The translations under genes were made by a program, and so were the position numbers. A stretch of 64,000 bases of DNA from Microbotryum violaceum. Its lineage: Eukaryota. The stretch is from assembly GCA_001244265.2 (NCBI GenBank), contig CDLV01000004.1:3534001-3598000 (forward strand), in the 5' to 3' direction. Shown in pieces: positions 10,903 to 50,620 of the stretch. The stretch's first letter is position 1. Each line of letters begins with the position of its first letter. The notes under the pieces are model-generated. The model was given only the letters and a program-made list of their open reading frames with translations, was not told the DNA's origin and searched no databases.

Positions 10903-13275
10903 ATCATGCACGGTCATCTTTTGTCCCAACTCGGAGAAGACTGAGTTTCCTTTTGTTCGAGGGGTTTCTATTGCATAAGGGGCTGTCTGTCAATGGATGC
11001 ACTCCCTGACACCACTTGCGCTCCAGTCCGAGCTTTGAGAAACCTCTTTAGCTCTACAGTAGCGAGATAGTAGCGAGGTGCCATCTCATCGTCCGGGATA
11101 ACGAAACAGCAAACATGCTTTGATATTTAGTACTCCAATTCCATTGCATCAATCACCGCACCCAATGATTCCACAGCGCTGGGCCCTAAGATCAATCTGC
11201 ACCGCTGCCCCTAAAACCCTTGTATACACCTCGTCGAAACCCTCTCCCAAATCCGTCTTGACCTCCTTCAACATGATGCCATCATTTTCCTTCAGTGACC
11301 TCATACACCAAGGTTCAGATTCGGTTGCCCAATCGGCCGTACCGGAACTGTACTGGGTCGCGAGAAAATAGGTCGAGGAAGGGTTGCGCTTGTCTTCGAA
11401 CAGGGAGCCGTTCCACCAAAAGGGACGACCCTCTGTCACGGATCGAACGAAACGGATAGTTAGTGATCAGGTATCGCGTCCTACGTTCAATAGACCTACT
11501 TCGATCGAGATGAAGATAATGCTCGCTACACATCTGAGGGGCTGAGACTCCGTCTGATCCGCTAAAGTAGGTAGGGTGCCCGATGATCGAAGCAAAGGGT
11601 GGATCGAAATAGTCTGTCGGGATGTAAACCAATGTTACATGGTCAGATCATAGTCAATTAGGCTAGCTACATAAGTGAGGGATCTCACAAGGTATTCCCG
11701 CGAGCTCGAAAGCGATCCTGTGCAATCCCGCACCGCTTCAATCAACTCCGACTCAAGGGCCTTTCCTGAACTTGATCGTGCCACACTTACCAACAAGATT
11801 GGTTGTCCCCAAAAGTCCTCTTGTACGTTACTTCATCCCTTATTTGCTTCGTATTGAGCCACCCGACAAAGACCATCCCCAACACGACATCCCGTCTCCC
11901 CTTATCGACGACGACGACACCGGATGCCATCTCCTCCCTCGACGCTCTATCCTCCATCTCGACTTGTTCAACATCGCACTCGGCACACGATTCTTCATCA
12001 CGCCTTCGAACCAAATATGGACCGCATCATCGGTAGGGAACAATTCACGATCTCTGAAGAACAAATACCCGTTTCTCGATAGCCTGGGTCTTGAAGGAGC
12101 ACATTCGGGTCCTGCATGAAGACGACGTCGGCATCGACGAGGATCGTTTCTTTGAAGGGCGAGGCTAATAGAGCGAAAGGCTTGATCGCATAACCGCCAT
12201 CCAAGATACCGACATGGTCTTCGGTTCGACGTCAAGGGGGTCGAACACCTCGACGTCAGGAGAAAGGGATTTCGGGCTTTCGTTGGTTATCCGGGGAGAG
12301 GTCGTCCGGCCCGGCATGGACGATGAGGATGGGCAACGTGGTCAAGTGCACTTTCTTGAGCGTTGTGATGAGGTGCAAGGCGTACTGTGGGTCGAGAGGA
12401 TAACGTTCCAGCCTATTATAAAGTTGTCTGGGCTGGAGAAAATTCTCACTCACCCGAAAGTACCAGTTTGAACAAGGGATCATGATTCCCTTTGGTCGAG
12501 TGAAGGTGTCGATAAGCTGATCGAATGATCTCCTACCTCCTCGGCCTGAGGCGATGTAGGGGAACAATTTGGTGAAGAGCGAATCACGAAGGTCGATTGC
12601 CGAGTTGGTGATCTTGTCTACCTCGTCTTGGGGTAGATGAGGACTGTTGGTGTTCTTGTGAAGCGATCCAAGTCCTGGTGGGACGCATCAAAGCCAGGTG
12701 GGTGAGACCGAACAAGGCGCGAGGAGATGTCTCACATTCACTTACGTGCACGACCTTGACCTGGTCGGCATACACCTCAATCATCTCAGGCCCGATAGAG
12801 TCTACGAGATTGATCGAACGGTGTTGCCGATCAAGTAGCGCTTGGTGCTGCCGCCCGAGCTCGTCCATGCTCGTTGCAACCGGGGTGCCTTTCGCGGATG
12901 AAAATGTCCGCCAGCGTTGTGCTGTCCGAGGATCGTCATAGACCCGGTTCAGGTGGTGGGCGGCAAGGGGCAGCAGATGATAGATTGTGAATGCTATGAG
13001 AATGCTCGGAAACAGATGTCGAAGTCGAAGATATCGGCTGGGTCGAGATGGGGCCGTGCCGAGGGCGCGCAAGGATCCGCATTAGATCAGATCACCGTCA
13101 GATCAGATCAGATCTGATCTGGATTTTTCTGATTCGGCCTTGATTGATCTGATCTTGATCTGATCTGAGACATGAAATTGCCTAATTTGGCACATAAAGA
13201 CTTCTACATGTCTACATGTTGAAATTTTCATCTTCTTCCTCCACAACCTCATCCTCATCATCCTCATCATACTCC

Positions 13276-15460
13276 TCAACAACTAGTAACTAATCATGAT
13301 CGGTAATAGAAGTGGGATGAAACAGCAATATACACTCTGACACCCCCCCCGTGCTGTCATACCACTGCACCTCGTAAGCCCAAATTCGTCCAATGGAAGA
13401 TGAACGGCTTGGGACCCAAGGCCTTGGTGAAGATGTCAGCAAACATGTCGCCAGTGGCGATGTAGCGGACCTCAATCTCTTTCTCAGCAACCCTCTCGCG
13501 GACGTAGTGTTCCGAGATGCGAACGTGACGAGATCCCTGATGGTTGGTCGGGTGTTGTGCCAGAGCAAGCAAACCTTGGTTGTCACCATAGAGCACGACT
13601 GGACCGGGAACCGGAGCCCCGAGTTCGCTCAGGAGTTCGCTCAGGTGAATGGCGTCCCCACTAGCGTACGAAAGAGAGAGGTATCCCGCGTCGGTAGTAG
13701 ACTTGGCGACCCTGTGCTCCCGTTTGGAACACCAAGCAATGGCGGCTCCGGACAAGATGAATGCGTAGCCCATGGTCGATCGCGAGGTTGTCAGGCAGGC
13801 TCCCCAGTTTGCATCCGAGTAGCCATGGAGCGGTTGGTTGGTCTTGCGGTAGGTGAGCCCCAAGTCCAGAGTGCCTTTGATGTAGCGGAGGACGTGCTTG
13901 ATGGCTGTCCAATGCTCCGGGCCGGGTTGCTGCGAGAAGCGCGCGAGGTAGCTGACTACGAAAGCGAGGTCCGGACGAGTGCCAACCGCGGCGTACATCA
14001 ACGAACCGATGGCCTGCAAGTAGCGAGTGCGATCCTCAGGGGTAGCAGACGAGTTCTCGAAATCGAGGACGACACCGGGTTGCATGGGGACGCCCGCTGG
14101 CTTGGCATCGGCGAATTGGAACCTGGCCAAGATATCTCAAAGGTAGCGTTCTTGGGAAAGTGTGATGGACCCGTTGTGCCCGCGTTTGACTTGGATGCCG
14201 AGGATGTATTCGGCAGGCCCGAGACGTTTGATACCATATGCGAGTTCTAACGCGTCGAGAACCCTGTCAAGCTCGGCGGTAGAGGGCCCAACCAACAGCA
14301 AGTCGTCAACGTACAAGGCGATGTAATGAGAGTGCCCGTCGTGTTCGCGGCGGTAGATGCAGATGTCCGATCGGGTGGGCACGTATCCGAGGGAGCGCAA
14401 AGTCGAGTCAATCTCCGCATTCCAGATGGTGCCCGCTTGGCAAAGTCCGTAGATGGATTTGGACAGCCTGAGGATCTTGCCAGGCATGTCGATGCCTAGT
14501 GGAACGCGCATGTAGAGAGGCTTGTCAAGTTTGCCGTGGAGGTACGCCTTGTTGACGTTGGCTTGATGGACATGGTAGCCATTGGCCACGGCGAGGGCAA
14601 TGAGAGCCCAAATGGATGTGAACTTGATGACGGGGGCATAGTTCTGCTCGAAGTCAATGCCAGGGCGTTGGGCACAACCGTGGGCGACGAGACGAGCCTT
14701 GCGATCGATGATGTCCCCGTGCTGGTTGTGTTTAGTTCGGAACACCCAGCCCGACCGTAAGAGGATCTCACCCGCGGGGAGCTCACAGGAGTCAATGACT
14801 TCGAACACCTCGTATTCGTTGAGAAGTGAGTCAAATTCGTCGTGTGCCGGGCCACCCCACGTGTCCTGTTGTCCCGATCGGATGACATCGCCCAATTGGC
14901 TGGATCTCGGACCACGGATAAGTCGTGCTCCGCAAAGCCGGCTTTGGTGGACGCGAAGGCACGGAGCATGCCCTGGAAGGCGGGAGTGGGTCCATCAGGT
15001 CCGCCAACAAGGTCTTCCCGCGTGATGAGGGTGGGAACGAGTTGGCGCCGAGTCCGGGGGCCAGCGGTGATGTGCCGAGCGTCGATTTCACCGTACTTCC
15101 CTGGATCGGGACCAACCTTGGCAACATTGCCGTACTCCCAAGTGGGCTTGACTTTGGCGAGTGGAGTTGGTTCCGGTGGTGCTGGTTCCGGAGGACGCTG
15201 CGGCAGGTGGATCGAAGAAGTGGCATCAGTAGAAGTCAATGTGACCGTGCACCAGTCCGCCCGCCATGGCTCCCAATGTGTGGTAGAACCACCGCCGGTG
15301 TGACTTGGGTGCACCGTCATATTCATCTATCAGCGGTCAGAGCAACTCTGATTAATAGAGTGGACCTGAGTTCAATTCTCAGTTCAGCCAAACTTTCCTT
15401 TGTTTTCCAATTGCATCGTCGTCGAGCGAAGGCGGCTGGGTGGGTTCGAGGCAGAGTGAT
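13276..15460 (-). mobile_element. Ty1/Copia RT-RNase H fragment with PPT and truncated 3' LTR
   Basis: [43 protein letters not shown]-run PPT precedes an LTR starting TGTCAGAG at 13342, which is cut after ~67 bp. Confidence 0.9.
15228..15412 (+). mobile_element. Short hairpin + tRNA-like retroelement, copy 1 (19-bp internal deletion)
   Basis: Near-identical to 24017-24220 and flanked by the direct repeat GCATC (15223-15227 / 15413-15417). Removing it restores the Copia frame (..[12 protein letters not shown]..). Confidence 0.8.
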
Positions 15461-16789: not shown

Positions 16790-19795
<3,006 letters not shown>

Positions 19796-21104: not shown

Positions 21105-21386
21105 CACTGAGGGTCGGTTGATTCCGGTAATACCCAGGTCTCACCTGGGTATTGTCCCGAGCGCGCCTGGGTATTACCCAGGCGCGCGGTATTAACCCCA
21201 CGACGGGCATTAACTCTCTGACGGGTATTACCCACGGAGATGGGTAATACCCAGCCAACGGGGAATACCCGGGCGCGCGGTAATACCCCCGAGCCGGGTA
21301 TTACTCATCTCTCTGGGTAATTAACGCGCCCCCGGAGGGGGCGACGGGTCCCTGAACCTCTGACGGAGTAACACCGACTGACAGTG
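21105..21386. mobile_element. MITE with CACTG termini
   Basis: Imperfect TIRs CACTGAGGGTCGGT / ACCGACTGACAGTG. The interior is packed with GGGTATTACCC/GGGTAATACCC palindromic repeats. Confidence 0.75.
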
Positions 21387-24016
21387 TCAGCTAGTATTAC
21401 TAAGAACGTACCATGGAACGGGTATGCAGCACCAAGTTTTCGAGTCAGTTTGGTTCACATGAATGAGGCGTTTAAATGTGCCAAATGTTAATGAACATTG
21501 CAGACAACGAGATCGAGCCAGAGCTGGGGGTGTAATGCATAAGTTGAGATCACTCGACATCGCCCATGTCACAGTGCGCGTCTGGACGAGTTTGCGTTCG
21601 CATGTGGTCATCAGCGTTGGGGACCCACATCGCGCGCTCACCGAAGTCAGCTTTAAGAAGTGGTTTCAGTTGACGTCGAGAGATTGGGATTTCCGGGAGC
21701 GACTTGGGCGCGAGACGGCCTGGCTTGGCTAGGCGCGGTGAATGTGTCCACCGCCAAGAGACATGGGAATCCAATGGCATGGAGTGTCAGTACTCCCCCA
21801 CAGATCTTTCACAGTGGGAAGAGCATTGCAACCCATGATTAGGTGACTTTTTGTCGTTGGCCTAAACAGTATCTGCTTTGTCAAGAAACTTGTCCTTGAT
21901 GCGCCCAAAGCTGTGAGATACCTTGTCATTGCAATGGTGAGTGTAAATCTGCCGGGTCGACGGTGACGAAAATGGTGTACATACCGAAAGCGTTGACGTA
22001 TCCGCGGATCTCATTCCTCATGTCGAGCATCTGCGCAGTTGTGCCGTAAATTTTGTCTCCGACACTTTGCAATTCCGCCAGAAAACAGTTGATATGCTTC
22101 TCTGCTTTTGTTGTGCCTTGTATCTTTTCGTGTCTTTGGGAATTTTTTGATCATTTCGGACACAACATCCATGTCGATTTCGAGCAGTGCTGCTGCAATT
22201 CGTGCCATCTCCTTATTGGGGACCCGAAAAGCGAGTTGGCAAAACACTTCCTTGTTGGCGGAGCATGTTCGAGACGATGAATGGGCAAGACGGGTTGCAT
22301 CAAAACCGCTGTTGTATAGATTGAACAAATGTTTGACTTGCTTGTCCAGAGAAATCTTGAGGTCGTGCTCGACACAGAAACCGACGAGACCAATTGGATC
22401 AAGGTGTGGCCACAGCTTTAAGAGCACAAGCTCGTCCGAAGGTGCCCACAAACGTGAAGGGGCATCGCCTGTTGGAATGACATAGGTGGGCTTGTCCTGG
22501 TTGAAATAACGGAGAGCTTTCTCAAAGAGCAGTCATGAGTGGATTGGTTTGTCGGTAGGGCGTGGCGGCACATGGACGCGTTCAAATACTGGTTCATCAG
22601 AGTCGTTATGCAGTACGTAGTTGCGTAGCCTTCAAAGAGCGATGATGTTGGTTCCACTGTCTCTGCCGTCACCACATTCGCCAAAACTACGTCGGGCACG
22701 AGACCGTCTCCATCCGCGATTTGTCGATCCGATACTTGGGGAGCAACCCAGACGGAAGCCGAAGTCGAAGTGGAAGCTGAAACCGCCGTAGAAGCTGGAG
22801 AGCGCGGGTTGAGCACACCCGCCCTGGCCGGAACTGCGTCGAACGAGCTGTGCAATCGCCATCAAAGGAGACGGCAGAGTGCGCCGAATTCTTGCTCTCG
22901 TTGATCAACCACTCGAGCATCTTTTGGATCCGACTCTGCTTCATGATCATGGGCTGACACTTGTCCAGCTCCGCAAGGTTGGGGCTCCCTCCACAGAATG
23001 CAAACACTGTCAGCGAGCTCCTTGACTGACATGGGCAGTACATCGGTGAACGAAGCGGTGTATTGGCTGAAGATGAGGGTGTTTTCGCGCGTAAGTTCTT
23101 GTTGAGCTTTCGGGATATCCGAAACGAGTTAGCTTGTACACGATCTTGTAGGCTCTGGCACGCGCAGTGACGAGGTGCTCAAGCTGACTTGCGTTGGAGA
23201 AGCAATCTCGGACATCAGCGGAGACGTGATCCAGTGCGGGATAAAATCCGCTGCTCAACGACTAAGGGGGACTTAGTCGGTGGCCCTGTGGTAAGGAACA
23301 GCTGTTTGAAGCAGTCTGGACAGAATGAGCACTGAAGCGTGATGTTTGTGGGCGAGTACGCGATCTGATCGATTAAAGAGTCGCTCGGTTGATGGAGACG
23401 TCGGGGACGGATGAGCGCACCCCGTCAAGCTGAAAAATCGTAAGTCGGAGGTCCGTCCGTAGTGTAGGGTTGGTCAATCCCCTCCAAATCCCTGATTCCT
23501 CGCGCTTGATGTCATCTTCAGGCACCGATCGTACGTTATGCCCGAAGACTCTCTCGGAACACACCAGGCAGCAGAAGAGACGGGAACGAGCGTCGGTGAA
23601 GTAATCATTCCATTCAGAACGGTTCTCGGTCTTGAACTGATCGGATGCTGGCGCAAAATGCGATGTTACTTTACCGGGATCTTCTTGTGCGGGTTCGGGA
23701 TGCAGCGGTGGACGTCTGTGCAGCGTTTGTTTAGAGTCAGTTGCTGAGACGTTCTCGCGATTCTTCTGGACTTCCTTGTTCAGTCAGGCTCGAAGCACGT
23801 CAACAGGTTTTGATGCGTATGCTCTGTGGTCGGAGAAGCAATGACGACGTGGCCGAGTCACGGGACTCGCCGCTTGTTGCCTTCTGAAAGCATATCCATT
23901 TGAACAAGCATTACAGTTGGGGTCGCACGACCAAAGGAGCGCTTGTAGGGATAGCCGAGTCTTTCGCAAGCGGGTTTCTCCTGGAGTATCCTTCCACGTG
24001 GTGGGCCCGAAAAAGC

Positions 24017-24220
24017 AGTAGAAGTCAATGTGACCGTGCACCAGTCCGCCCGCCATGGCTCCCAATGTGTGGTAGAACCACCGCCGGTGTGACTTGGGTG
24101 CACCGTCATGTTCATCTATTCCCACTGGTTGAGTAGCTCAGCGGTCAGAGCAACTCTGATTAATAGAGTGGACCTGAGTTCAATTCTCAGTTCAGCCAAA
24201 CTTTCCTTTGTTTTCCAATT
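24017..24220 (+). mobile_element. Short hairpin + tRNA-like retroelement, copy 2 (full length, 204 bp)
   Basis: Perfect 13-bp TSD GGCCCGAAAAAGC (24004-24016 / 24221-24233). A second copy lies at 15228. Confidence 0.85.
24127..24198 (+). ncRNA. tRNA-like cloverleaf (pseudo-tRNA, 72 nt) with Pol III A/B boxes
   Basis: Acceptor GGTTGAG/TTCAGCC-A, D arm GCTC/GAGC, anticodon arm ACTCT-GATTAAT-AGAGT, T arm CTGAG-TTCAATT-CTCAG, with a downstream T-run. The loop lacks U33. Confidence 0.7.
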
Positions 24221-25049
24221 GGCCCGAAAAAGCTCCTTCAGGAGACTCCCATGCTGAAGTTGATGCTGCTGCACACGAGCTGCCCAAGACTGCATTTGAC
24301 AACCACATCATTGAGCACTGACACTGGACGATCGTGTACGAGCGGACCGGAATACACATACTTGCTTGATCGGTGCGGCGGGAGGATCGGCTGTCGCTAG
24401 TGGTGGACGCGAGGGTTAACACGTTGCTGAGATTCGAGCGTTGTGCACTGCAGTGGGCTGACCTTGGCGATGGTGCGGACTCGGAGGTGTACAAGATCAG
24501 AAAGCAATGACATGACGGCGATTGTGTGATAGCCTGTCTTAGAGATGCAAGGAAACTTGGCCCAAGTTAGAACAAGGCAGTACAGAGAGACGGAAAGGAG
24601 AGGGCCGGGCGGTGGCAACTTGCCAGCGGAGGCCAGCCTGAGTGCGCTAGCTTATGCTTGTCTGCGCTAGTGGTGCGCTCTGGTGCGGGGACTCGGGGAG
24701 GCTGTCGACTCCATTGTAAGAGCGCAATGCGAACCGAAATAGCTGGGATGGAGTCGGATTTGCAGCATAAGAACCAGGCATCCCGTAACAAACGGGATGG
24801 GTTGAAAATCTACCCACGAGAGACCATAGATAAGAAAGTAAAGGAAAGAAATAGACCAACAAGGCTGTTTTTGTATTTATTTATTTTGTAGGGTGGGTGG
24901 GAGGAGACAAAGATAGAACAACTATGCTTGTAAAGCGCGATTCTATGAGTACTCAGAATACTGCAAAGACTCTGAGGACTATGGCATACCTATGCTTGTA
25001 AAGTGTGTCGCTTGGAGACAAGAAGACAGCAAAGGAAACAGACCTCATC

Positions 25050-26340: not shown

Positions 26341-29300
26341 TGTAAGGCCCGTGCGCCTGGGCCTTAGGAAGAGGGGACGCGCGCCTGGGCACTCTTAGTC
26401 TCTCTCCAGCGACTGATACGAGTGTCCAGGTGAGCACAAGGTGGATCAGAAGGCATTGTCATACCAGCGACTGATACGAGTGTCCAGTGTCAATTCTACA
26501 TACTTTGGTCCTGTGATCCTTGTCGTTGTTGCTCAGGTGTACACTCCAACGGGGTGTATTACACTTTTTTTTTCACACCGGTCAAAGACGCACACTGCCA
26601 CGTGCGCCAGCGACACACCCACGGAACGAACAAACGACAACGAACGGTAACAGACGAACATGGCGCGTGGCAAGAACTCCACCGCCCAACCAGCGCCACC
26701 ATCGGCACCAGAGGAAAGGGAGGACAGCTCGGACGATGAACAGGAGGTTGCAACGATGCCAAGGGGCATGAAGCTCAGCGCGCCCAAGCTTGCGAACGAA
26801 ACGAAGACGGCGAAAGCGGCTAAGAACGACACCCTCCATCAAATTGCGGAAAACTCAGAAGACGACATCTCAACGGACGAAGAAAACGAGTACGCCCCTC
26901 AGTTCATCTCCACCATTCCCATCACTCTGCACAACAACACGAAGTCAAAGACGTTGCAGGCACTTGCTGACTCTGGGGCCTCTTCCTCCTTTATCGCAGA
27001 TAAGGTGGTTGAGAAACTGGGGTTAGTCATGCATCGTCTCCCTGTTCCTACATTGGTCAAAACTGCAATCAAAGGTCAAGCACGCGCGTTTCATGTTACC
27101 TCGTTTGTAAAGATTCCGATCACGCTCGAGAATGGCGCATGGGAAGCGGGACACACGATTCTGAAGGTGGCTAAATTGCAGGAGCCCTTGGAAGTGGTAC
27201 TGGGGTTCAACTTCCTTGTAAAACACAAGGTTACCATCGACTTCGTGGCACACAAGATCTTGGTGCCACATCCGACCATGCCTGACGTAAAGATCGACCT
27301 TCTTGCGCCGGTCTTTGGACCCCACCCCCAGCGAGCCGCGGCGAGGAATGCCAAACGAAGCGATAAAGCTCGGATCAACTGGCGTGCAGTGATTGCCTAC
27401 ATCGACGGGGTCCAGCAAAGGGAAACGGAGTTGACGGAGTTGCGATGGCGGGAGGCAAAGCTACGGGTCGAGTTCGCGGATCGGTTCCCGGGGGATATTC
27501 CTCCGGTTTCGACGTATGAATCACCGGTCCGACACCGAATCGAGCTGAAGGACGGAGCAACAAAACCGAACTTGAAGGGTTATCGAGCGGCACACTGTTA
27601 CTGGGAAGCCTGGAAGCGCCTGATTGATCAGCACGTCGCCAATGGCCGCCTTCGAAAGTCGTCATCAGAGTTCGCATCCCCGGCGTTTGTCATCCCAAAG
27701 AAAGGTATGGATAAGGACCCGTCAATCCAACCACGCATGGTCTGTGACTACCGAGTACTCAACGAAGGGACGGTCCGAGATCGCACACCTCTACCACTTC
27801 CGGACAAGATTCTGTCGGTCTGCTCAAACGCGCGATTCTGGGGGAAGATCGACATGACAAACTCCTTCTTCCAAACCAAGATGGCCGAGGAAGACATCCG
27901 GAAGACGGCGATTGTGACACCGTGGAGATTGTACGAGTGGACGGTAATGCCAATGGGACTCTGCAACGCGCCAGCAACGCATCAGCGCCGAGTCAACGAG
28001 GCACTCGCAGACCTTATCGGGAGTGTGTGTTTCATGTACCTTGACGACATCACAATCTTTGCCGACGCCTTGGAGGAACATGAACGACGGGTGCGACTAG
28101 TCCTGGAGGCGCTGAGACGGGCGGATCTGTACGTATCGCCGAAGAAGACGGAACTGTTTGCTGCCGAGTGCTTTTTCCTCGGCCACCAGATCACTCGGGA
28201 AGGCATCAAGGTCGACCCCAACAAGGTGGAGCGAATCCAACAGTGGCCGCGACCAAGGACGGTGAAGCAATTGCGGGGATTCCTAGGTCTGGTGCAGTAT
28301 CTGCGGAAGTTCATCGACAAGCTTGCGGATTTGACGGCGGTTTTAGTCCCGCTGACACGGAAAGGGGTGCATGTCGACGAAGGCTGGACGGGAGAGCACG
28401 ACAAGGCGTTTGAGGCAATCAAGTCCTTGGTGGGCAACCTTCCTTCTCTACATCCCATTGACCATTCCGACAAGGGCGACCCATTATGGCTGATGACGGA
28501 CGCGAGCAATCGGGGAATCGGGGCGGCACTCAGTCAAGGAAAGCAATGGCAGACGGCCATGCCGGCAGGCTATTGGTCACGACAGTACAACCCAGCGGAA
28601 GGCAACTATGCAGCCCACGAGATGGAATTGCTTGCAATTGTGGACGCCCTTCATCACTGGCGGGCGGACCTTTTGGGTGTTCGATTCAAGATCCTCACAG
28701 ACCACCACTCCTTGGCGGGCTTCATGAAGCAACCAAGCCTTTCACAACGACAAGCTCAATGGACCGAACAACTGGCCGTTTACGACTTCGAGATTGTATA
28801 TGTACGAGGTCCAGAGAACACAGTGGCTGATGCATTGAGTTGTTACTCTTTCCCGGAGGAACCCACAGCCGGCCGCCAGGCGAGCGACAATGTCAACGTG
28901 CTGGCGGAGGCAACTCTCGATCCGGCCTTCCTTTGCAAACTCAGGGACGGTTACCGCAAGGACCCGCAATGTCAACAAGCTATCAAGAACATTGACTCAA
29001 CACCAGGCTACTCAGTCGACAATGGAATCGCACGGTTCAAAGGACGGATCCTCCTGCCAAAGACGGGGAACTTTTGGGAGGACGCGCTACATGACGCGCA
29101 TGATGCCGCAGGCCATTTTGGACTACACAAGACGTATGAACACCTACGCCGCAACTTTATCTGGTCGGGAATGAAGGATGCATGCAAAGATTACGTTGAG
29201 TCCTGTGCTGCTTGTCAGACAATGAAGATGCATGGCACCGGTTTTGCCGGTCGGATCCACAATTTGAATGTGCCTGACCGGCCAGGCCAATGCGGGAAGT

Positions 29301-30710
29301 TGGCCTAGACTTTGTCGGGCCACTTGTACCTAGCAATGGTAATGACGCACTGCTTACGGTAACAGATCGCCTTTCAGGCTACGTTCGCCTCATCCCCTGC
29401 CGCACGACGGACGACGCGACTACCATGGCGGACCGGTTCTTTGAGGGGTGGCATCGACACTTCGGCATGCCACGAGTGCTGGTCTCCGACCGCGTCAAGC
29501 TCTTCACAAGCGAGTTCTGGCGAGCGTACATGGGCCAGCTGGGAACGAAACTGGCAACATCGACGTCTTTCCACCCACAAACGGATGGCCGAAGCGAGCG
29601 AACAAATCGGACCGTGATCCCTTTCCACCCACAAACGGATGGCCGAAGCGAGCGAACAAATCGGACCGTGATCCAAGTCCTGCGAACAATGGTCAACCGA
29701 CGGCAAAATGACTGGTCAAAGCACTTGGCTACGGTGGAGTTTGTGATCAACTCCAGTATGAACAGGTCGACGGGGAAGACGCCATTTGAAGTGGTACTTG
29801 GGTTCATGCCGGAGCTGACGCCGATCACCCCAGTGGAGGGCTCAACCACGTCACAGGCAGTCAAATCCATTGTGGAACAACGTGAAGCAGCGGTTGCGGA
29901 AGCCCGAGACAATTTGGCAATTGCAAAGATCCGACAGGCCAACCAGAGCAACAAGGCGAGGAAACCGGAGCCCGGGTTTGCAGTTGGCGACATGGTCTTA
30001 GTTGACTTGCGGGATCGACGACTGCGGTACAAGGCCGATGGGGAAGCACGGTCAGCCAAACTCTTTCCCCGGTTTGACGGCCCCTACGAAGTCCTAGCAG
30101 CACGACCCGAAACCTCAAATTACAAGCTGAAGCTCAAGGCGGGGGACAAGTCGCACAACGTCTTCCACGCCTCCAAGCTCCGACGCTGGGTAAAGAACAA
30201 TGGGGTGGTGTTCCCAGGACGAGAGGCAACGGAACCAGCGGCCATTATCGTCCAAGGAAACGAGGAGTGGGAGGTAGAACGGATTGTGGACGAAAAGGGG
30301 AAGGGGTCAAGGAAGAGGTTCTTGGTGAAATGGAAGGGGTGGGCAGACAGCGACAACACATGGGAGCCATGCTCACACCTGGAAGACACCGCAGCGTTGG
30401 AAGAGTGGGAGAGTGGGAAGGCGGGGGAGGACAAGGCAAGGAGGGGAGGGTGTAAGGAGGGAGGGGAGTTTGGTTTAGGTGGTGGAGAGTGTAAGGCCCA
30501 TGCGCCTGGGCCTTAGGAAGAGGGGACGCGCGCCTGGGCACTCTTAGTCTCTCCAGCGACTGATACGAATGTCCAGGTGAGCACAAGGTGGATCAGAAGG
30601 CATTGTCATACCAGCGACTGATACGAGTGTCCAGTGTCAATTCTACATACTTTGGTCCTGTGATCCTTGTTGTCGTCGCTCAGGTGTACACTCCAACGGG
30701 GTGTATTACA
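26341..30710 (+). mobile_element. Chromodomain-bearing Ty3/Gypsy LTR retrotransposon, gag-deleted, no TSD
   Basis: LTRs TG..CA at 26341-26563 and 30490-30710 (the 3' LTR may begin at 30451, right after the PPT). Flanks TGCGC and ATAGA do not match. Confidence 0.92.
26660..30516 (+). pseudogene. Gypsy pol (PR-RT-RH-INT-chromodomain) with a frameshift near 29290
   Basis: LADSGAS, YLDD, TDAS, HHCC zinc finger, LDFVGPL, TDGRSER and chromodomain [20 protein letters not shown]. Confidence 0.9.
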
Positions 30711-33700
30711 ATAGAGAGTGATGATAGCAAACAAAGTGCCCGAATGTTTGATGTAGAGGCAAGCATCAGCAGTTGCCCTCATGTAGCCTCGAGACACCAT
30801 GAGATTGTTGACGGCTCAATACCATTCACGGGGCGCCTGTTTGGTGCCATACATGGAACCCACGAGCTTGAGGCACTTGCCAGGGGATTGAGGACGATTC
30901 CATCCTTTTGGGTATTGAACATAGACATCCTTGGTCATCTTGCCGTTGAGAAAGGCGCAGTCAAAATCGAACTGTTTGAGATACAGGCCCTGAGCAGCAG
31001 CCAGAGCAATCAAGAACAAAATTGTCGAAGAACGAGCGACAGGAGCGTAGGTGTCATGGTTGTCGATGCCTGGGCGTTGAGCAAATCCTTGAGCAACGAG
31101 ACGAGCTTTGAAACGAATGATTTTGCCATTTGCATCGCGCTTGATACTGTAGACCCAGATCGTGCCGAGTACCCGAATCCCTTTGTGCCACTTGACTTCC
31201 TGAAAGACTCCATGATGATCGAATTGTAGAAGTTCTGAGACCATTGCCGCACTCCAATGGTTGCAATTGGGTGACTTCATGGCTTCCTCAAATGTCTTGG
31301 GTATCTCAATGTCTTCTTTGGCAAACACGGCAGCACAGTAGGCATTGTAGGAAAGCTTGTTGTGGGACATGGTTGGAGTATCCAAGACATTGACCATGAT
31401 AGCCAAAATGATGGGAAGTATATTTTCCGGAGGTTGAGGTCGACGACAAGAACCAGCAGGAAGGATGTTGGAAGGATCAACATTCTCGAATTGGCCAGGA
31501 TTTGGACCAGTGCAAACAATGGTGTAACCTTCATGAGGAGCGAGAGTGACTTCTGCCTCACCGTCGAGTGGTTCTTTTGCGTCATGATAGTTATCAGGTC
31601 CATTGTTGTTGTCATTGTCGTCATCCTTACAAGGAACGACTGCAAGATACCCCCCTGTTGACCAACTCCAATTGGAACCACCGGAGGAGGCTGTGGATCC
31701 GGCAAAGTTGGATCCACAACAGGTGAAGTTGGTGTAGATGGCAATACATCTGGCGGAGGATGAGGAGGTTGAGAATGATGAACAGGATCAGAAGCGTCCG
31801 CACAATCTTGAGACGAAGTGACAACGGAAGGAGTCTCAAGGAATGTGACGTGACGCGAAACGTAGACCCGTTTTGACAATTGGACCCAGACACGGTAGTT
31901 GTATTCACCGGAGTACCCGATGAAAACTCCCTGACTGGAGCGAGGTGCAAGCTTGGAGCGACGCTCCTTCGGAACGTGGACAAACGCCGTAGATCCGAAT
32001 GGCTGAAGATGAGCAAGACTAGGCTTCTTGCCGAGAAGAGCTTCGATTGCCGTTTTTCCTTGAATACGAGGATGTGGTCAACGATTGAGAACAAATGTTG
32101 CGACGGCCAGAGCATCTGACCAGAATCACATGGGAAGACCGGAGTCGAGGAGCATTGATCAAACGAGACCCATGAGAGATCCATTGAGTCGCTCTACTTG
32201 ACCATTTTGCTCCGGAGTATAGGGGGCCGTGAATTCCACAATGATGCCCTGCTTTTCAAGAAGAGCCCGGAACAATGAGTTGTCGAATTCATGACCATTG
32301 TCCGATCTGACCCTCTTGATTTTCTGACCGGTTTGATGCTCGGACTCGGCTTGAAATTTCGACCATGCTTCGATAATTGTCTCAGCCCTCTTGTCCTTTA
32401 GCACGATCGTCCATTTAGCCGTCGAATACTGATCCACAATAGCGAGATAGATAGTATCGCCATGGTGATTGGGATGTTTGACAAACCCAAGATTGATGAA
32501 GACGCGGTAGAGTGCATGAGACGCTTCGGTACTCTTGTTGGAGAAGGGTGATCACTTTGACTTGGCCTGGATGCACGAAAAGCAAGGAGTAACCTTTTTG
32601 TCCTTCAGAGTGATGCCAGTGATAGCCCCGGGTTTGACGGCCAAAACGATCGCCGCAGGAGATTGATGGCCCAACTTCCGATGTGCTTCCATCAACGTAC
32701 AGGTTCCAGTGAGACGATTAGCTCCGACCATTGAAGGCGGTGAGGATGACATGATAGGCTGAACGGGAGCTGCATCCATGACAAACCCCCAACCAGGAAG
32801 CGAGCGCAGAATTGACTTGCCGCGGATGCTGAAAATGAGATTGCTTTGGGGACCAACAGCGTACGTCATCGATTCCAACAGACGGTCGATGGAGATAAAA
32901 CCGCATTGAGCACCGGGCATGTAGTAGACCCTCTTAATGGTGATACGAGCGCCATATGAGGTAAGAAACGTCACTGAGCCATGACCGGGAGATTCGATTT
33001 GAGATTGATCGGCGACAGAAATTTTGAGAGGCTCAGAGACAACGTCCGATAGGACCGACTTGTCTCCAACGCAATGGACCTTAGCACCCGAGTCAATGAT
33101 CCATGGAAAACGTGGCATCGTTCGCGAATAAGGGAAAGTGTAGGTCATCAATGCAGATTCATCTACACCAATGGCAGCTACGTTCGAATTTGAGTCCGAG
33201 GAAGCGGGAGCGCTCACATCCTTGTTCCTGCTTGGACAGAGACGCCAACCACGCTCGTGTCCCAGTGCTTTGCAGCGCGAACAATACGACTTGGAGTAGT
33301 CCTTTTGCGCCGTGGTGGAAATACGGGTGACGAGGCTAGTATTGTCAATGATCCGAGCGGATAACAATTCCTTTTGTTTGTTTCGGGAATCAGCCATTTC
33401 GACGTTCATCAGGAGTTTCGGATAGAACGTGTTCCAATCCATGTGGATGTCGATGTCGGAGGCAAGGTTCCCAACGATCGAGTCATACTGGGCTGGGAGC
33501 GACCGAACGAGCATGCCTGCAAACAGCCAATGCGGAAGCGGAGCTCCGAGGTTCTGAAAATCGGTCATGGCGATCTTGACCTTGTTGACGAATTCCTTAA
33601 AAGGAATATTCCCAGAGTAAGGTTGCGCTAGAGTGTTGAGGAGGTCCATAGTGCGACTCGGGCGACCGTGAGAGTGGAGACCACGGAGGGTGTCCCACAT

Positions 33701-34326
33701 CTTGTACGCCGAGGTAAGATGAATCAAGTGAGACATCTGTTCCTCAGAGATCGAATTGGCGATGTACTTGCATGCCAAATCGTTGCGGCGGATGCCCCGT
33801 TCGCGATATTCCACGACCTTGTCCGCAACTTGAACACTGGTGAGCCTGGGCGAGGCGTCCGAGTGCGCAGAACCAGAGCCCCCCCCCCAAGCCCGCTAAA
33901 GCCGGAGGAGGCTGGTTCAACTGGCGTGACGGACGCAGTTGCATGTGTGATAACGAGCGTGGACCAATAGTCCGCGACAAGGGAGTCGATGGATTGATCG
34001 ACAACATCCCATACTTTGTCGGCTCAAAGATTGATAAACGCACGTTGTGACCAGCTCTTGTACCCTTGTGTGTCCTTGAGATACAAGCGATTGCCCAACC
34101 TGTTGGGAAGTCGGATTCGCCTATTGAGCTCATAACCTGTTGCAACAAGGACTAAGAGGTACTCCACGACTCAGCTCCGAGATACACGAGTGAGATGATG
34201 AGAATAGCGTGGAGAAGGAACACAGAAGGAAAAAAGACGCAAAGACAAAGATAGGCGCGCGCGCAGAATAAAGTATTAACCAAGATCAATAGCAATGAGT
34301 TAGGCTCTCAGACCCCACTTCTAACA
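30711..34326 (-). mobile_element. Ty1/Copia, 5' part (inverted duplicate arm), truncated at the YVDD codon by the Gypsy LTR
   Basis: LTR 34138-34326, PBS GGTTATGAG, gag-PR ORF 32552-33814, INT and RT pieces. It is the reverse complement of 34924-38490. Confidence 0.92.
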
Positions 34327-34923: not shown

Positions 34924-37900
34924 ATACTTTATTCTGCGCGCGCGCCTATCTTTGTCTTTGCGTCTTTTTTCCTTCTGTGTTCCTTCTCCACGCTATTCTC
35001 ATCATCTCACTCGTGTATCTCGGAGCTGAGTCGTGGAGTACCTCTTAGTCCTTGTTGCAACAGGTTATGAGCTCAATAGGCGAATCCGACTTCCCCAACA
35101 GGTTGGGCAATCGCTTGTATCTCAAGGACACACAAGGGTACAAGAGCTGGTCACAACGTGCGTTTATCAATCTTTGAGCCGACAAAGTATGGGATGTTGT
35201 CAATCAATCCATCGACTCCCTTGTCGCGGACTATTGGTCCACGCTCGTTATCACACATGCAACTGCGTCCGTCACGCCAGTTGAACCAGCCTCCTCCGGC
35301 TTTAGCGGGCTTGGGGGGGGGCTCTGGTTCTGCGCACTCGGACGCCTCGCCCAGGCTCACCAGTGTTCAAGTTGCGGACAAGGTTGTGGAATATCGCGAA
35401 CGGGGCATCCGCCGCAACGATTTGGCATGCAAGTACATCGCCAATTCGATCTCTGAGGAACAGATGTCTCACTTGATTCATCTTACCTCGGCGTACAAGA
35501 TGTGGGACACCCTCCGTGGTCTCCACTCTCACGGTCGCCCGAGTCGCACTATGGACCTCCTCAACACTCTAGCGCAACCTTACTCTGGGAATATTCCTTT
35601 TAAGGAATTCGTCAACAAGGTCAAGATCGCCATGACCGATTTTCAGAACCTCGGAGCTCCGCTTCCGCATTGGCTGTTTGCAGGCATGCTCGTTCGGTCG
35701 CTCCCAGCCCAGTATGACTCGATCGTTGGGAACCTTGCCTCCGACATCGACATCCACATGGATTGGAACACGTTCTATCCGAAACTCCTGATGAACGTCG
35801 AAATGGCTGATTCCCGAAACAAACAAAAGGAATTGTTATCCGCTCGGATCATTGACAATACTAGCCTCGTCACCCGTATTTCCACCACGGCGCAAAAGGA
35901 CTACTCCAAGTCGTATTGTTCGCGCTGCAAAGCACTGGGACACGAGCGTGGTTGGCGTCTCTGTCCAAGCAGGAACAAGGATGTGAGCGCTCCCGCTTCC
36001 TCGGACTCAAATTCGAACGTAGCTGCCATTGGTGTAGATGAATCTGCATTGATGACCTACACTTTCCCTTATTCGCGAACGATGCCACGTTTTCCATGGA
36101 TCATTGACTCGGGTGCTAAGGTCCATTGCGTTGGAGACAAGTCGGTCCTATCGGACGTTGTCTCTGAGCCTCTCAAAATTTCTGTCGCCGATCAATCTCA
36201 AATCGAATCTCCCGGTCATGGCTCAGTGACGTTTCTTACCTCATATGGCGCTCGTATCACCATTAAGAGGGTCTACTACATGCCCGGTGCTCAATGCGGT
36301 TTTATCTCCATCGACCGTCTGTTGGAATCGATGACGTACGCTGTTGGTCCCCAAAGCAATCTCATTTTCAGCATCCGCGGCAAGTCAATTCTGCGCTCGC
36401 TTCCTGGTTGGGGGTTTGTCATGGATGCAGCTCCCGTTCAGCCTATCATGTCATCCTCACCGCCTTCAATGGTCGGAGCTAATCGTCTCACTGGAACCTG
36501 TACGTTGATGGAAGCACATCGGAAGTTGGGCCATCAATCTCCTGCGGCGATCGTTTTGGCCGTCAAACCCGGGGCTATCACTGGCATCACTCTGAAGGAC
36601 AAAAAGGTTACTCCTTGCTTTTCGTGCATCCAGGCCAAGTCAAAGTGATCACCCTTCTCCAACAAGAGTACCGAAGCGTCTCATGCACTCTACCGCGTCT
36701 TCATCAATCTTGGGTTTGTCAAACATCCCAATCACCATGGCGATACTATCTATCTCGCTATTGTGGATCAGTATTCGACGGCTAAATGGACGATCGTGCT
36801 AAAGGACAAGAGGGCTGAGACAATTATCGAAGCATGGTCGAAATTTCAAGCCGAGTCCGAGCATCAAACCGGTCAGAAAATCAAGAGGGTCAGATCGGAC
36901 AATGGTCATGAATTCGACAACTCATTGTTCCGGGCTCTTCTTGAAAAGCAGGGCATCATTGTGGAATTCACGGCCCCCTATACTCCGGAGCAAAATGGTC
37001 AAGTAGAGCGACTCAATGGATCTCTCATGGGTCTCGTTTGATCAATGCTCCTCGACTCCGGTCTTCCCATGTGATTCTGGTCAGATGCTCTGGCCGTCGC
37101 AACATTTGTTCTCAATCGTTGACCACATCCTCGTATTCAAGGAAAAACGGCAATCGAAGCTCTTCTCGGCAAGAAGCCTAGTCTTGCTCATCTTCAGCCA
37201 TTCGGATCTACGGCGTTTGTCCACGTTCCGAAGGAGCGTCGCTCCAAGCTTGCACCTCGCTCCAGTCAGGGAGTTTTCATCGGGTACTCCGGTGAATACA
37301 ACTACCGTGTCTGGGTCCAATTGTCAAAACGGGTCTACGTTTCGCGTCACGTCACATTCCTTGAGACTCCTTCCGTTGTCACTTCGTCTCAAGATTGTGC
37401 GGACGCTTCTGATCCTGTTCATCATTCTCAACCTCCTCATCCTCCGCCAGATGTATTGCCATCTACACCAACTTCACCTGTTGTGGATCCAACTTTGCCG
37501 GATCCACAGCCTCCTCCGGTGGTTCCAATTGGAGTTGGTCAACAGGGGGGGTATCTTGCAGTCGTTCCTTGTAAGGATGACGACAATGACAACAACAATG
37601 GACCTGATAACTATCATGACGCAAAAGAACCACTCGACGGTGAGGCAGAAGTCACTCTCGCTCCTCATGAAGGTTACACCATTGTTTGCACTGGTCCAAA
37701 TCCTGGCCAATTCGAGAATGTTGATCCTTCCAACATCCTTCCTGCTGGTTCTTGTCGTCGACCTCAACCTCCGGAAAATATACTTCCCATCATTTTGGCT
37801 ATCATGGTCAATGTCTTGGATACTCTACCCATGTCCCACAACAAGCTTTCCTACAATGCCTACTGTGCTGCCGTGTTTGCCAAAGAAGACATTGAGATAC

Positions 37901-39644
37901 CCAAGACATTTGAGGAAGCCATGAAGTCACCCAATTGCAACCATTGGAGTGCGGCAATGGTCTCAGAACTTCTACAATTCGATCATCATGGAGTCTTTCA
38001 GGAAGTCAAGTGGCACAAAGGGATTCGGGTACTCGGCACGATCTGGGTCTACAGTATCAAGCGCGATGCAAATGGCAAAATCATTCGTTTCAAAGCTCGT
38101 CTCGTTGCTCAAGGATTTGCTCAACGCCCAGGCATCGACAACCATGACACCTACGCTCCTGTCGCTCGTTCTTCGACAATTTTGTTCTTGATTGCTCTGG
38201 CTGCTGCTCAAGGCCTGTATCTCAAACAGTTCGATTTTGACTGCGCCTTTCTCAACGGCAAGATGACCAAGGATGTCTATGTTCGATACCCAAAAGGATG
38301 GAATCGTCCTCAATCCCCTGGCAAGTGCCTCAAGCTCGTGGGTTCCATGTATGGCACCAAACAGGCGCCCCGTGAATGGTATTGAGCCGTCAACAATCTC
38401 ATGGTGTCTCGAGGCTACATGAGGGCAACTGCTGATGCTTGCCTCTACATCAAACATTCGGGCACTTTGTTTGCTATCATCACTCTCTATGTTGACGACG
38501 GTCTCATCACGTCCAACAATCAGTCCTTCTTGGACTCCGCTCGGATCGCTTTACAAGGCCTTCCAGCTCAAGCGTGTCGGACCCGTCTCCTACTTCCTGG
38601 GCTTCGAAATTCATCGCATCAAAGATTACATCCTCGTTCACCAAAGCAAGTATGTCCGCACTATGCTCGAGAAGTTCGATTTCGCTTCTCCATCCAAGCG
38701 CCGTGCAGTCACGCCCATGGACGATCACCCCTCGCTTCGAATCGATGCTACTCCGTTTGCCGATGTGTCATTGTACCAATCGGCTGTGGGTTCCCTGCAG
38801 TACGCGTCCACTTGATTTTGACCCGATATTGCGATTGCTGTTCGTGCCGTTGCTCAAAAGAACTCCTGTCCAACTGTCAACGATTGGGCTGCGGTCAAGC
38901 GTATATTTCGCTACCTCAACAGCACCATCGATTTGGGAATTCTTTATCGAAACAGTTCCACAACTCGATTGATGGTCTACTCCGATGCCTTGTTTGCGGA
39001 TGACCCGGAATCTCGCAGATCGGTGGGAGCCTATGCATCAATGTTCGCTGGCGGCGTTATCTCCTGGCAGTCGAAGCAACAATCTATGATCGCTACATCC
39101 ACTACCGAAGCCGAAATCCTCTCTGCATCCTCAGCCACTTGTGAAGCAATCTGGCTCCGTTGTTTGACTGGTGATGTCGGCATTCCACAAGCACAGCCTA
39201 CTATCATTCAAGAGGACAACGCCGCATGCATCCAAATCGCCAAGGATCCGGTCGATCACATGCGAACCAAGCACTTCGACATTGCTCATTTGTTCGTTTG
39301 AGACCGGGTTGCTTCTGGCAAGGTCGAACTTGAATACTGCCCTACCCACGTCAATGCCGCGGATATTATGACGAAGCCTTTGGGACTTCAACGTTTTGAT
39401 CAACTTTGTGCGCTACTTGGAATGGTCTCGTTAGTCTCTTTGACCGGTGGGAGTGTTAGAAGTGGGGTCTGAGAGCCTAACTCATTGCTATTAGTCTTGG
39501 TTAATACTTTATTCTGCGCGCGCGCCTATCTTTGTCTTTGCGTCTTTTTTTTCCTTCTGGGTTCCTTCTCCACGCTATTCTCATCATCTCACTCGTGTAT
39601 CTCGGAGCTGAGGCGTGGAGTACCTCTTAGTCCTTGTTGCAATA
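34924..39644 (+). mobile_element. Ty1/Copia LTR retrotransposon, inactivated, 5' LTR truncated
   Basis: Partial LTR 34924-35062, PBS 35063-35072, CCHC gag, WIIDSGA protease, VRSDNG/QNGQVER integrase, KARLVAQG/YVDD RT, RNase H and 3' LTR 39454-39644. Multiple in-frame stops. Confidence 0.93.
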
Positions 39645-43026: not shown

Positions 43027-44403
43027 AGGACCCATGAAAGCCCAGCCAGAGGCGCGTAGGTAAAATCCGGGAAGATCGCCGATTTTGGACCTCATTTGTC
43101 CACCATTTTTTGGGATTTTCGCCCAAAAAAGTCCCCAAAATGTCCAGTCCATCTACGCGCCTCAAAAAATAGCTCCAGATTCGTTTCAAAATGCTCTAAA
43201 ACATCTTCAAAAATCACGAAAACGCCGTCCGGACGTTTTTCGCTCGGGCCGAATCGCCGGAGCCGGCGCGCGCTCTTCAGCCGTGTCGGTTCTGCTTCGC
43301 CGAGGGCTCCTCACCTGCACTTACTGCCTGCCTCTTTGCCTAACGCGGCCATAGTATACATGTAACGTACCACGAGAGGTTAGATCGATTGCAGTCACTC
43401 TGCGAAGCAGTAAGCTAGCTACAGTGAGATCTACGAGCCCCCAGGTTCATTGAGGGGGTAATTATTCCTCAACGAGCAGTGACGGCATCACCTCCAGAGC
43501 TCTAACGAAGGGACGTTGATCTTCGATGCCGACACGCGAATGACTACACCAACTCTTGGCTACTGAGAACAACTGAACGCATGCGCTCAGCGTGATCTAT
43601 ACGCCGCCAGATTCGACGTCGAAAGGCAGCCGATAATGATAGACTGGTGGCCTTGCCTACGTGCCGCAAGGATTGCTCCACGATCTTCAACTTGTCCCTC
43701 AAAGCATCGAGCGGCCTAGCAAGGGATTCAAACTCGAGAGGCTCGTCTGTCGACCATGAAAGCTGTTTAAGCTGAATCCGGGTGCATTGGCTGGTTTGTC
43801 AAAGCTGGAGGCAAAAAGCTCAGACACCCTCACGTCCAAGAGGGGTGCCATTCGCTCAAAATCATCGTCTGAAAGAGATCGATATCCGGACCTCTACGTT
43901 TCGTCAAAGCAAGCCGAGCCGAGAATGTAGGATATTGGCGATGATGGCACAGACGACGTCGACGCGACGTGGCGGGGAAGGCAAGAGACGCGCGCACTCG
44001 AACGTTCGAACGCCTCGCTCAACCAGCCAAGAGGTCATTTTTCATGAAAGCGGACGGTTAAAAGCAAGTCGATCAGAATGATCGTAGATTTGTAAGAATA
44101 AATGTTGGAAGTGCAAAATAACCATCAATTAGAGCCGTTGTTGTGAATTCGGTACAGCCCGGAATGTTTCGCGTGCGCTCCCGCGGCTCTTGAGGGTCGG
44201 CAAACTTTGGCTTTCCAAGCCGAACGTGGCCGAAATGGGTCCCGATTTGTTCACTGAAACCTACGAGCCTAGGACCCCACCCACACCGGCGCACCATGAT
44301 TTGTCCACCCCCGACTACGCCCCCTGGCGATTTTGGCCCATCTGAGGCCCAAAATTTGTCCAGTCGGGCGCTACGCGCCTCCGGCTGGGCTTTCGGGGGT
44401 CCT
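43027..44403. repeat. ~33-bp inverted repeats bounding 1.38 kb; probable non-autonomous TIR element
   Basis: AGGACCCATGAAAGCCCAGCCAGAGGCGCGTAG versus reverse complement AGGACCCCCGAAAGCCCAGCCGGAGGCGCGTAG, with shared GATTTTGG/TTTGTCCA subterminal motifs. No TSD found. Confidence 0.6.
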
Positions 44404-44510
44404 TACTCAGCGCTACTCAGCTACAGGCCACCAGCCGCACTTCTGGCTCCCATCTTGCCTTCGTCCCTCTCCCACCCCACCCCACCGCTCACCACATCAA
44501 TCCGTCCAAC

Positions 44511-44618
44511 ATGGGTGTCCCCGCTCTTTTTCGATGGCTGTCGAAAAAGTATCCCAAAATCGTGTTACCCGTACGTTCCCATCGTGCCCAAGTAACGGCC
44601 TCAGCTCTAGTGGGCCTC

Positions 44619-44677
<59 letters not shown>

Positions 44678-50371: not shown

Positions 50372-50620
50372 CTCTTGAAGGTGATAGGGTAAGACAACGG
50401 AGGGTGTAGGATGCAGAGCGCGAGTACTGAGCGATCAGTGGAGATTACAGGCCGGCTTAGATCTTGAGCAGCGGTCATCTTCGATTGCCAAAGAGAGAGC
50501 GTGCACTGGCCCCCTTTCTGCCCTTTGTTTGGATTTGGGAAACGTCGCCACAGCGCTGCTTCAACCATACCCACAGGGCTTTGATCAGCTATCTACAGCC
50601 TCAGAATTAACTTCAGCGAC
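50372..50620. promoter_or_regulatory. Bidirectional HD1/HD2 promoter region (249 bp)
   Basis: Short interval between the divergent start codons. Confidence 0.6.

Follow-up and report, generated by a model that had tools for sequence, protein, structure and literature searches.

A 64,000-nt stretch of genomic DNA from Microbotryum violaceum (contig CDLV01000004.1, positions 3,534,001 to 3,598,000), referred to as the window in the following, contains two copies of a short non-coding mobile element, which combines a long imperfect hairpin with a tRNA-like cloverleaf in a unit of 204 bp. The original prediction, made from the sequence before this analysis, had described two near-identical copies with unrelated flanks, target-site duplications (TSDs) of different length and a possibly undescribed class similar to short interspersed nuclear elements (SINEs). 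We found the element to be a real, recently mobile, low-copy and non-autonomous family. The features of the two copies are the following:

24017..24220 (+): copy A of the element, full length, 204 bp
24004..24016: left TSD of copy A (13 bp, GGCCCGAAAAAGC), exact repeat of 24221-24233
24221..24233: right TSD of copy A (13 bp, GGCCCGAAAAAGC), exact repeat, single in the empty site of relatives
24018..24119: long imperfect hairpin of 39 pairs, apex near 24062-24066 (element nt 2-103)
24127..24198 (+): tRNA-like cloverleaf (pseudo-tRNA), found with Rfam (tRNA) and ARAGORN (element nt 111-182)
24199..24220 (+): T-rich trailer with T4 at 24211-24214, ending in CCAATT
15228..15412 (+): copy B of the element, 185 bp, with a 19-bp internal deletion
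15223..15227: left TSD of copy B (GCATC, 5 bp)
15413..15417: right TSD of copy B (GCATC, 5 bp)

Structure of the element and its two copies

The distance between copies A and B is 8.8 kb; their hosts are different, and each copy has a TSD of its own. The 19 bp missing from copy B are equivalent to 24119-24137 of copy A (+/-1), so that copy B is without a 5' acceptor arm and lacks the beginning of box A. Outside this deletion the copies differ at a single position, 24110, and are 99% alike, as had been predicted. Since A is found at 24110 in copy B and in every contig covering this position in the runs of four relatives described below, the G is private to copy A. Within the window, a BLASTN search at a word size of 7 and E<=10, with nt 1-194 of copy A as the query, recovered copies A and B and no third copy. 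Neither insertion flank has a paralogue in the window, and the two flanks are unrelated to each other.

The predicted difference in TSD length was recovered with 13 and 5 bp. Both copies have a C at position -1 and a G at +1, so that each of these lengths is uncertain by 1-2 nt. Among 200,000 random 204-nt segments of the window, exact flanking repeats of at least 5 nt occurred in 0.16% and of at least 13 nt in 0.001% of the cases. The termini of the element are AG...TT (AGTAG...CCAATT) and not TG...CA. They are not complementary to each other, terminal inverted repeats (TIRs) are lacking, and no second long terminal repeat (LTR), primer-binding site (PBS) or polypurine tract (PPT) was seen beside either copy. 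TIR or LTR termini, which the original prediction had named as evidence that would speak against it, are thus not present.

The first ~110 nt form the imperfect hairpin that had been expected there, with 39 pairs between 24018 and 24119. It folds with -42.6 kcal/mol on the plus strand (z -4.2) and with -48.7 kcal/mol on the minus strand (z -5.5), and in both cases none of 200 shuffles was as good. The raw energy is not extreme in this GC-rich window, in which 113 of 4260 plus-strand segments of 106 nt and 27 of 4260 minus-strand segments of the same length fold at least as well. As four G-U pairs occur on the plus strand and four on the minus strand, the folding gives no strand call; the hairpin is essentially a palindrome at the DNA level. 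Its exact runs are shorter than the seeds of the repeat search (9 nt and 12 nt), which therefore did not pick it up. No Rfam family was found for the hairpin (23800-24400 at E<=10, whole window at E<=1), and an exact-pattern scan of metagenome contigs with a 27-nt hairpin stretch gave no matches, a result of little weight in a mostly non-fungal collection.

The second half of the element contains the complete 72-nt cloverleaf with A and B boxes that had been reported for it. At 24127-24198 Rfam identified a tRNA with 49.9 bits (gathering score 29, E 1e-9), and ARAGORN called a tRNA at 24126-24199 with the anticodon TTA. The acceptor stem comprises 7 bp. A box A-like stretch at 24134-24144 and a box B-like stretch at 24177-24187 agree at 10 of 11 and 8-9 of 11 positions, respectively, with what we take to be the consensus motifs. 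Since the anticodon at 24160-24162 corresponds to a stop codon and position 33 is an A, the cloverleaf is classified as a pseudo-tRNA. The stop anticodon, the lack of U33 and the location of both copies within transposons are at variance with a functional tRNA gene, and the TSDs enclose 110 nt of non-tRNA sequence besides the cloverleaf. Copy B does not score as a tRNA any more (no ARAGORN call). The folding energy of the tRNA half alone does not reach significance (z -1.3 and -0.9). The trailer TTTCCTTTGTTTTCCAATT has T3, T3 and T4 runs, in agreement with the T-rich tail of the prediction. A 29-nt pattern of the anticodon arm had no matches in metagenome, genome and viral contig collections, which are mostly non-fungal and give this negative result little weight.

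Empty site, further insertions and a longer sister family in related genomes

Twenty public runs from five organisms and nine studies each contained 6-38% of the words of 23717-24520. None contained half of them, so that the strain of the window is probably not represented, and no RNA run is listed among the 20. Contigs from four of the 20 runs, one per organism (X1, X11, X15 and X16), were compared at 85% likeness, and 24 of 46 loose contig ends were examined. In X11 and X16, one contig each shows the empty site of copy A: the joint leads from 24003 to 24221 and skips 217 nt, and 13 letters at the joint fit both sides. Loose ends support these joints independently. In two contigs each of X1 and X11, the match up to 24016 is followed without a break by the right host flank, and in one X16 contig position 24222 is immediately preceded by the left host flank. 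The host repeat also has more diverged copies without the element (joints 24009/24010->24225, 24016->24249 and 24009->24249); one host-repeat contig differs at 31 of 290 nt. The insertion at 24017 therefore seems to be confined to the genome of the window.

Unitigs of the element with 1-2 differences per 94-174 nt from copy A were found in four related organisms, namely in X11 (24016-24189, two differences), X16 (24017-24164, one difference), X15 (24016-24116, one difference) and X1 (24096-24189, one difference). A further X1 contig of 3040 nt ends in 24123-24220 with 5 differences in 98 nt. Unrelated sequence follows 24220/24221 in at least seven contigs and precedes 24017 in at least one, and among the matches listed no contig bridges the host-element junctions of copy A. 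Unitig depths amount to 4-8x those of neighbouring longer contigs; as such a depth is not a copy number, the element is read only as low copy. The same element with the same termini is therefore present with other flanks in four organisms, and the original prediction does not fail for want of more than two copies. Copies, flanks and empty site together bear out its claim of a mobile, non-autonomous element with variable TSDs. From these matches, the family is either young or conserved.

In addition, a longer relative of the element was detected, which matches 24115-24216 (10 differences in 102, 90%) or 24135-24216 (6 in 82) and is represented by contigs of 523, 567 and 359 nt in X11, X15 and X16. 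This long family leaves the element after 24216, where the short family has AATT, and these last 4 nt of the element are specific to the short family. The long family continues with GTAACAACCAG, GTAACA(A/C)CCAGT..., in at least seven contigs (four from X1, two from X15 and one from X16) and its continuation runs up to 255 or more letters; in the window the continuation motif has no match at up to two mismatches. In a manual alignment, the 30 letters before 24115 in X15 agree with the 3' hairpin arm at ~12 of the first 15 positions, after which the match decays. Between short and long family the tRNA-like part keeps 92 of 102 letters and the adjoining hairpin arm less. The sister family accordingly shares the block of hairpin and tRNA, with the tRNA-like part as the better conserved portion. 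A third, more diverged variant of T-arm and trailer was seen at a loose end at 24181 in X15. The pseudo-tRNA module has radiated into several families in these fungi. A match to the end of a known larger element had been named in the original prediction as an argument against it, and this point is touched by the longer family with its 90% likeness over 24115-24216.

Mode of transposition and relation to known elements

TSDs of variable length are a mark of target-primed reverse transcription by an enzyme of the type encoded by long interspersed nuclear elements (LINEs). From the variable TSDs in combination with the lack of TG...CA ends and of inverted ends we infer this mode of insertion also for the element described here. 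An integrase, a cut-and-paste transposase and a Helitron are excluded by the unequal TSDs, the AG...TT ends and the lack of TIRs and of a second repeat, PBS and PPT. We propose that an RNA copy of the whole unit would be reverse-transcribed at a staggered chromosomal break, with the enzyme provided by a putative non-LTR (LINE-type) element.

In tRNA-derived SINEs (SINE2) the tRNA head is located at the 5' end, and its internal A and B boxes drive transcription from the first bases of the element. Mg-SINE of Magnaporthe is a fungal representative. With SINE2 the element shares the short non-coding length, the independent insertions, the tRNA-derived module with A and B boxes and the low copy number in fungi. 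Unlike SINE2, the element has its tRNA part either in sense from nt 111 of 204 onwards or, if the other strand is considered, in antisense; a ~100-nt hairpin fills the 5' half, and the sense strand has no A-rich or repeat tail. A 5' tRNA head with promoter, the defining feature of SINE2, is not found, the cloverleaf occupying nt 111-182 of 204, and the claim that the tRNA-like part is not at the position usual for tRNA-derived SINEs proved correct. Among fungal tRNA-derived SINEs, AfuSINE2 of Aspergillus fumigatus is described as a low-copy element with TSDs of 4-14 bp (PMC5063351). The TSDs of 5 and 13 bp are likewise variable, and the minus-strand end of the element is similar to the (ACT)n tail given there for AfuSINE2-1a (PMC5063351). 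Composite SINEs of the SINEU type carry 5' heads derived from small nuclear RNA (snRNA) (PMC4494074). They likewise have a module of other origin 5' of the tRNA-type part (PMC4494074), but the 5' module of the element matches no Rfam family and is without a recognisable promoter. Such an order would result if a 5' module was added by template switching as reverse transcription came to its end.

[quoted passage not shown] This source describes two LTRs, a PBS and a PPT, a TSD of 5 bp for fungal Helenus, and pseudo-tRNAs which are often called suppressor tRNAs by tRNA finders (PMC10886601). Common to both are the occurrence in a basidiomycete, an internal tRNA-like unit for RNA polymerase III (Pol III) that follows unrelated sequence, the association with Copia and the position of the tRNA-like sequence with its A and B boxes inside the repeat unit; the 5-bp repeat of copy B, taken alone, fits the fixed TSD of 5 bp. 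In contrast to Helenus, the element is a single 204-bp unit with AG...TT ends and one TSD of 13 bp, and neither the set of two LTRs, PBS and PPT nor the combination of TG...CA ends with a fixed 5-bp TSD was found. The long sister family might be of the Helenus type.

LINEs of the stringent type and their SINEs have 3' tails which are reported to be recognised as a stem-loop plus a short repeat (PMC4176376, PMC5135761). In minus sense the element ends comparably in a stable stem-loop and a 16-nt tail with an (ACT)3-like end, but its stem of ~39 bp is far longer. The usual recognition hairpins of LINEs are much shorter than that. The remaining classes of DNA elements agree less with the data. 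Miniature inverted-repeat transposable elements (MITEs) and other cut-and-paste elements are contradicted by non-complementary termini and TSDs of 13 and 5 bp. Helitrons are characterized by insertion at A/T without a TSD, a 5' TC, a 3' CTRR and a small subterminal hairpin, and the element has clear TSDs and the ends AGTAG...CCAATT. None of the papers listed in literature searches (Repbase, SINEBase, Dfam and supplements not included) describes a SINE that has a hairpin on its 5' side and a tRNA-like part on its 3' side. We regard the element as an atypical module order within retroposons and not yet as a new class: of the proposed undescribed SINE-like class, the SINE-like mobility and the odd tRNA placement stood, and Helenus and the longer family count against a clean new class.

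Our tentative preference, held at somewhat less than an even chance, is a plus-sense retroposon, and we lean towards the plus strand over the minus strand as the RNA. This RNA would begin with the ~100-nt hairpin and continue with a pseudo-gene derived from a tRNA in sense orientation, in which the A and B boxes are intact, and with the T-rich trailer. The tRNA-like module would be the functional core, either for the binding of Pol III factors or as a module of RNA structure. The hairpin would serve as a 5' leader, and the start of transcription would be set by something other than the tRNA boxes, for which the promoter of a master copy or an unrecognised internal promoter are candidates. The longer sister family would consist of the head of hairpin and tRNA and a long 3' body. 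Several hints point to the plus strand. The cloverleaf is intact with its 49.9 bits and is the part best conserved between the families, and all three variants within the tRNA-like part keep the fold (two in loops, one changing A-U to G-U). Two contigs begin within the left part of the element (at 24029 and 24059), and there are no short stops on the right side among the matches listed. Moreover, both insertions in the window have GTG|G at the left TSD edge, for which a shared 4-mer is expected by chance in 0.4% per edge.

A number of observations weigh against the plus-sense retroposon. The hints from truncation and target motif comprise two cases each, and the shorter sides of the empty-site joints, 26 and 30 letters, are just below the 31-letter rule. 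In plus sense box A is located ~118 nt from the 5' end; since the boxes of a type-2 Pol III promoter cannot start transcription that far upstream, the promoter of a full-length plus RNA is unexplained, and none placed to make a full-length RNA was recognised in either sense. With T4 followed by six more element bases, the end of the plus RNA is not a Pol III terminator, and the tail (CCAATT) is neither A-rich nor a simple repeat. The minus-strand end ACTTCTACT, in turn, is within one mismatch of (ACT)3 and lies beside the hairpin, and the minus strand folds 6 kcal/mol better than the plus strand. In the window, the open reading frames (ORFs) scanned include no LINE reverse transcriptase or endonuclease, and the element ends match nothing else by BLASTN. 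A special form of the plus-sense RNA, which we consider improbable, would have a functional 3' tRNA-like end, recognised by the reverse transcriptase or by a tRNA-processing or tRNA-binding factor, and the 5' hairpin would provide a start other than that of Pol III type 2. Tail structures of this kind, i.e., 3' tRNA-like ends, are known in retroplasmids and plant viruses. If this were true, it would be a SINE architecture without precedent, common to at least two families of this lineage of fungi.

The alternative of a minus-strand RNA is possible, but we consider it unlikely. Its 3' end (the hairpin plus ...ACTTCTACT) would be a stringent LINE tail of the I/Tad type, the tRNA look-alike would be an antisense passenger, and the longer family would be a fuller element or a LINE 3' untranslated region, extending in the 5' direction. 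Only 22 of the 127,984 9-mers of the window are within one mismatch of the (ACT)3-like end, and (ACT)n tails are reported for the fungal AfuSINE2-1a and its I-clade LINE relatives (PMC5063351). The remark of the original prediction on a minus-strand end similar to short LINE tails is still viable. The better-folding strand of the hairpin (-48.7 kcal/mol, z -5.5) lies directly upstream of this tail, and the recognition of stem-loops by stringent LINEs is established (PMC4176376). The long family extends past 24216 and hence on the 5' side of a minus-strand RNA, as is expected if the short forms are shortened at their 5' end, and this RNA has no T4 run. However, the hairpin as the supposed recognition tail is less conserved than the antisense tRNA, the reverse of what tail sharing between LINEs and SINEs would give, and nothing would make an antisense tRNA retain a cloverleaf of 49.9 bits and fold-preserving variants. 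The repeat number of the tail does not vary in the three copies with the left end seen, the contigs truncated on the left would be 3' truncations, the G-U counts favour neither strand, and a promoter is not evident for the minus strand either. We see a slim chance that the copies are retropseudogenes of a lineage-specific small RNA gene of ~204 nt with an external promoter, scattered by LINEs from one master locus. Animal snRNA, 7SL and Y RNAs are scattered by the LINE machinery in this way. Ends that are precise and identical in all copies seen in spite of the lack of a suitably placed internal promoter, the low copy number and the near-perfect conservation across four related organisms would agree with such a gene. 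Against it stand a pseudo-tRNA with nonsense anticodon and A33, the fact that Rfam finds only the tRNA part at E<=10, and the lack of any master locus seen; the diverged long family and at least one further variant of the tRNA module look like a radiating transposon family and not like one gene.

Slimmer still is the chance of an LTR origin, in which the hairpin and the tRNA-like Pol III unit would be U3 and R of a Helenus-like terminal-repeat retrotransposon in miniature (TRIM) and the 204-bp copies solo-LTR-like or aberrant forms; the long family may then be a Helenus-like TRIM. Helenus has its tRNA-like unit in the LTR, 5-bp TSDs and a dependence on Copia, according to PMC10886601, and copy B has a 5-bp repeat and lies inside a Copia. 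In addition, the long family has GTAACA after TTTTCC and one contig begins with the TG at 24029, a combination that would amount to TG...CA termini which match briefly in inverted orientation, as read from loose ends of 30 nt. The short element, however, ends in AG...TT, the 13-bp TSD of copy A is backed by the empty site, neither copy is accompanied by a second LTR, PBS or PPT, and the hosts are different and 8.8 kb apart. The least probable explanations, which the data contradict, are a coincidental similarity, faulty assembly, a segmental duplication and a DNA-transposon derivative (MITE or Helitron). The DNA-level palindrome of the 5' half is foldback- or MITE-like and both copies are found in a transposon-rich region, but the flanks are unrelated, TIRs are missing, the TSDs are unequal, and the empty site as well as other insertion sites occur in independent assemblies. 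Moreover, Helitrons make no target-site duplication. All readings other than a plus-strand RNA, a minus-strand RNA, retropseudogenes and an LTR derivative are very improbable even when taken together.

Host elements, surroundings and significance

The following transposon domains are found near the copies:

14140..14994 (-): Copia-type reverse transcriptase (RVT_2, E 6.9e-49), host of copy B
21929..22150 (-): Helitron_like_N remnant, host repeat of copy A (E 2.7e-7, 31.4 bits, cutoff 28.9)

Helitron and Copia had been named as hosts in the original prediction. The Copia is well supported, as copy B adjoins the RVT_2 domain (E 6.9e-49). Copy A sits in a multicopy repeat 1.9 kb from the weak Helitron_like_N remnant, and a Helitron as its host is plausible, if thinly supported (E 2.7e-7). 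In each of the four related assemblies this host repeat occurs in very many, diverse copies; its summed contig depths reach 15,000 in X11, and many internal deletion variants occur, e.g., 24279/24289->24363 and 24311->24366. In the unclassified region to the left of the Helitron remnant there is a 146-nt direct repeat (18210-18355 and 18464-18609, 88% alike, 254 nt apart). An inverted-repeat cluster at 21167-21321, built on GGGTAATACCC-type motifs, forms the strongest minus-strand folds of the window and may represent, beside the Helitron_like_N remnant, a terminal or subterminal structure of a Helitron.

The window as a whole is rich in transposons and contains several pieces of Copia gag and reverse transcriptase. 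A Ty3/gypsy chromovirus pol region at 26651-30513 (+) with open frames of 885 and 412 aa encodes protease, reverse transcriptase, RNase H, integrase and chromodomain and is possibly a young, intact element. Two Copia gag/Pol_BBD regions, which are oriented oppositely at 32555-33895 (-) and 35080-36645 (+), are followed by a Copia reverse transcriptase at 37123-38382 (+), the Copias being nested or head-to-head. Palindromic simple sequence of the type (GATCA/GATCT)n at 13082-13168 gave matches to mir-2329 on both strands (30 and 28.7 bits, gathering score 90), which were rejected as a low-complexity artefact of the GATC-type palindrome. Among the cellular genes, an XRN2/Rat1-type 5'-3' exoribonuclease gene is located at 44346-47288 (+), with at least three exons and the domains XRN_N and XRN_M; the best database identity of an exon is 57-58%, and 50% to Agaricomycotina, which points to a basidiomycete lineage that has no near relative with annotation. 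Two divergent homeodomain genes at 49622-50434 (-) and 50585-51958 (+) (Homeodomain E 4e-6, Homeobox_KN E 1e-10) look like the layout of the HD1/HD2 mating-type locus of basidiomycetes. The 45 kb to the left of this pair consist almost entirely of transposons.

The theory of SINEs rests on a 5' head derived from a small RNA, which brings the promoter into each new copy. The family described here is mobile, and its only recognisable promoter module is either misplaced or on the wrong strand. This implies one of three things: an unrecognised route to the template RNA, a use of the 3' tRNA-like fold, or an antisense-tRNA passenger in an element driven by a LINE tail. For genome annotation it is of relevance that the element inflates the number of "suppressor tRNA" calls. 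It also serves as a marker of very recent insertions beside an apparent basidiomycete HD mating-type locus, in the flank that is rich in transposons, and it ties in with the question raised by Helenus of how LTR and non-LTR elements exchange tRNA-like units.

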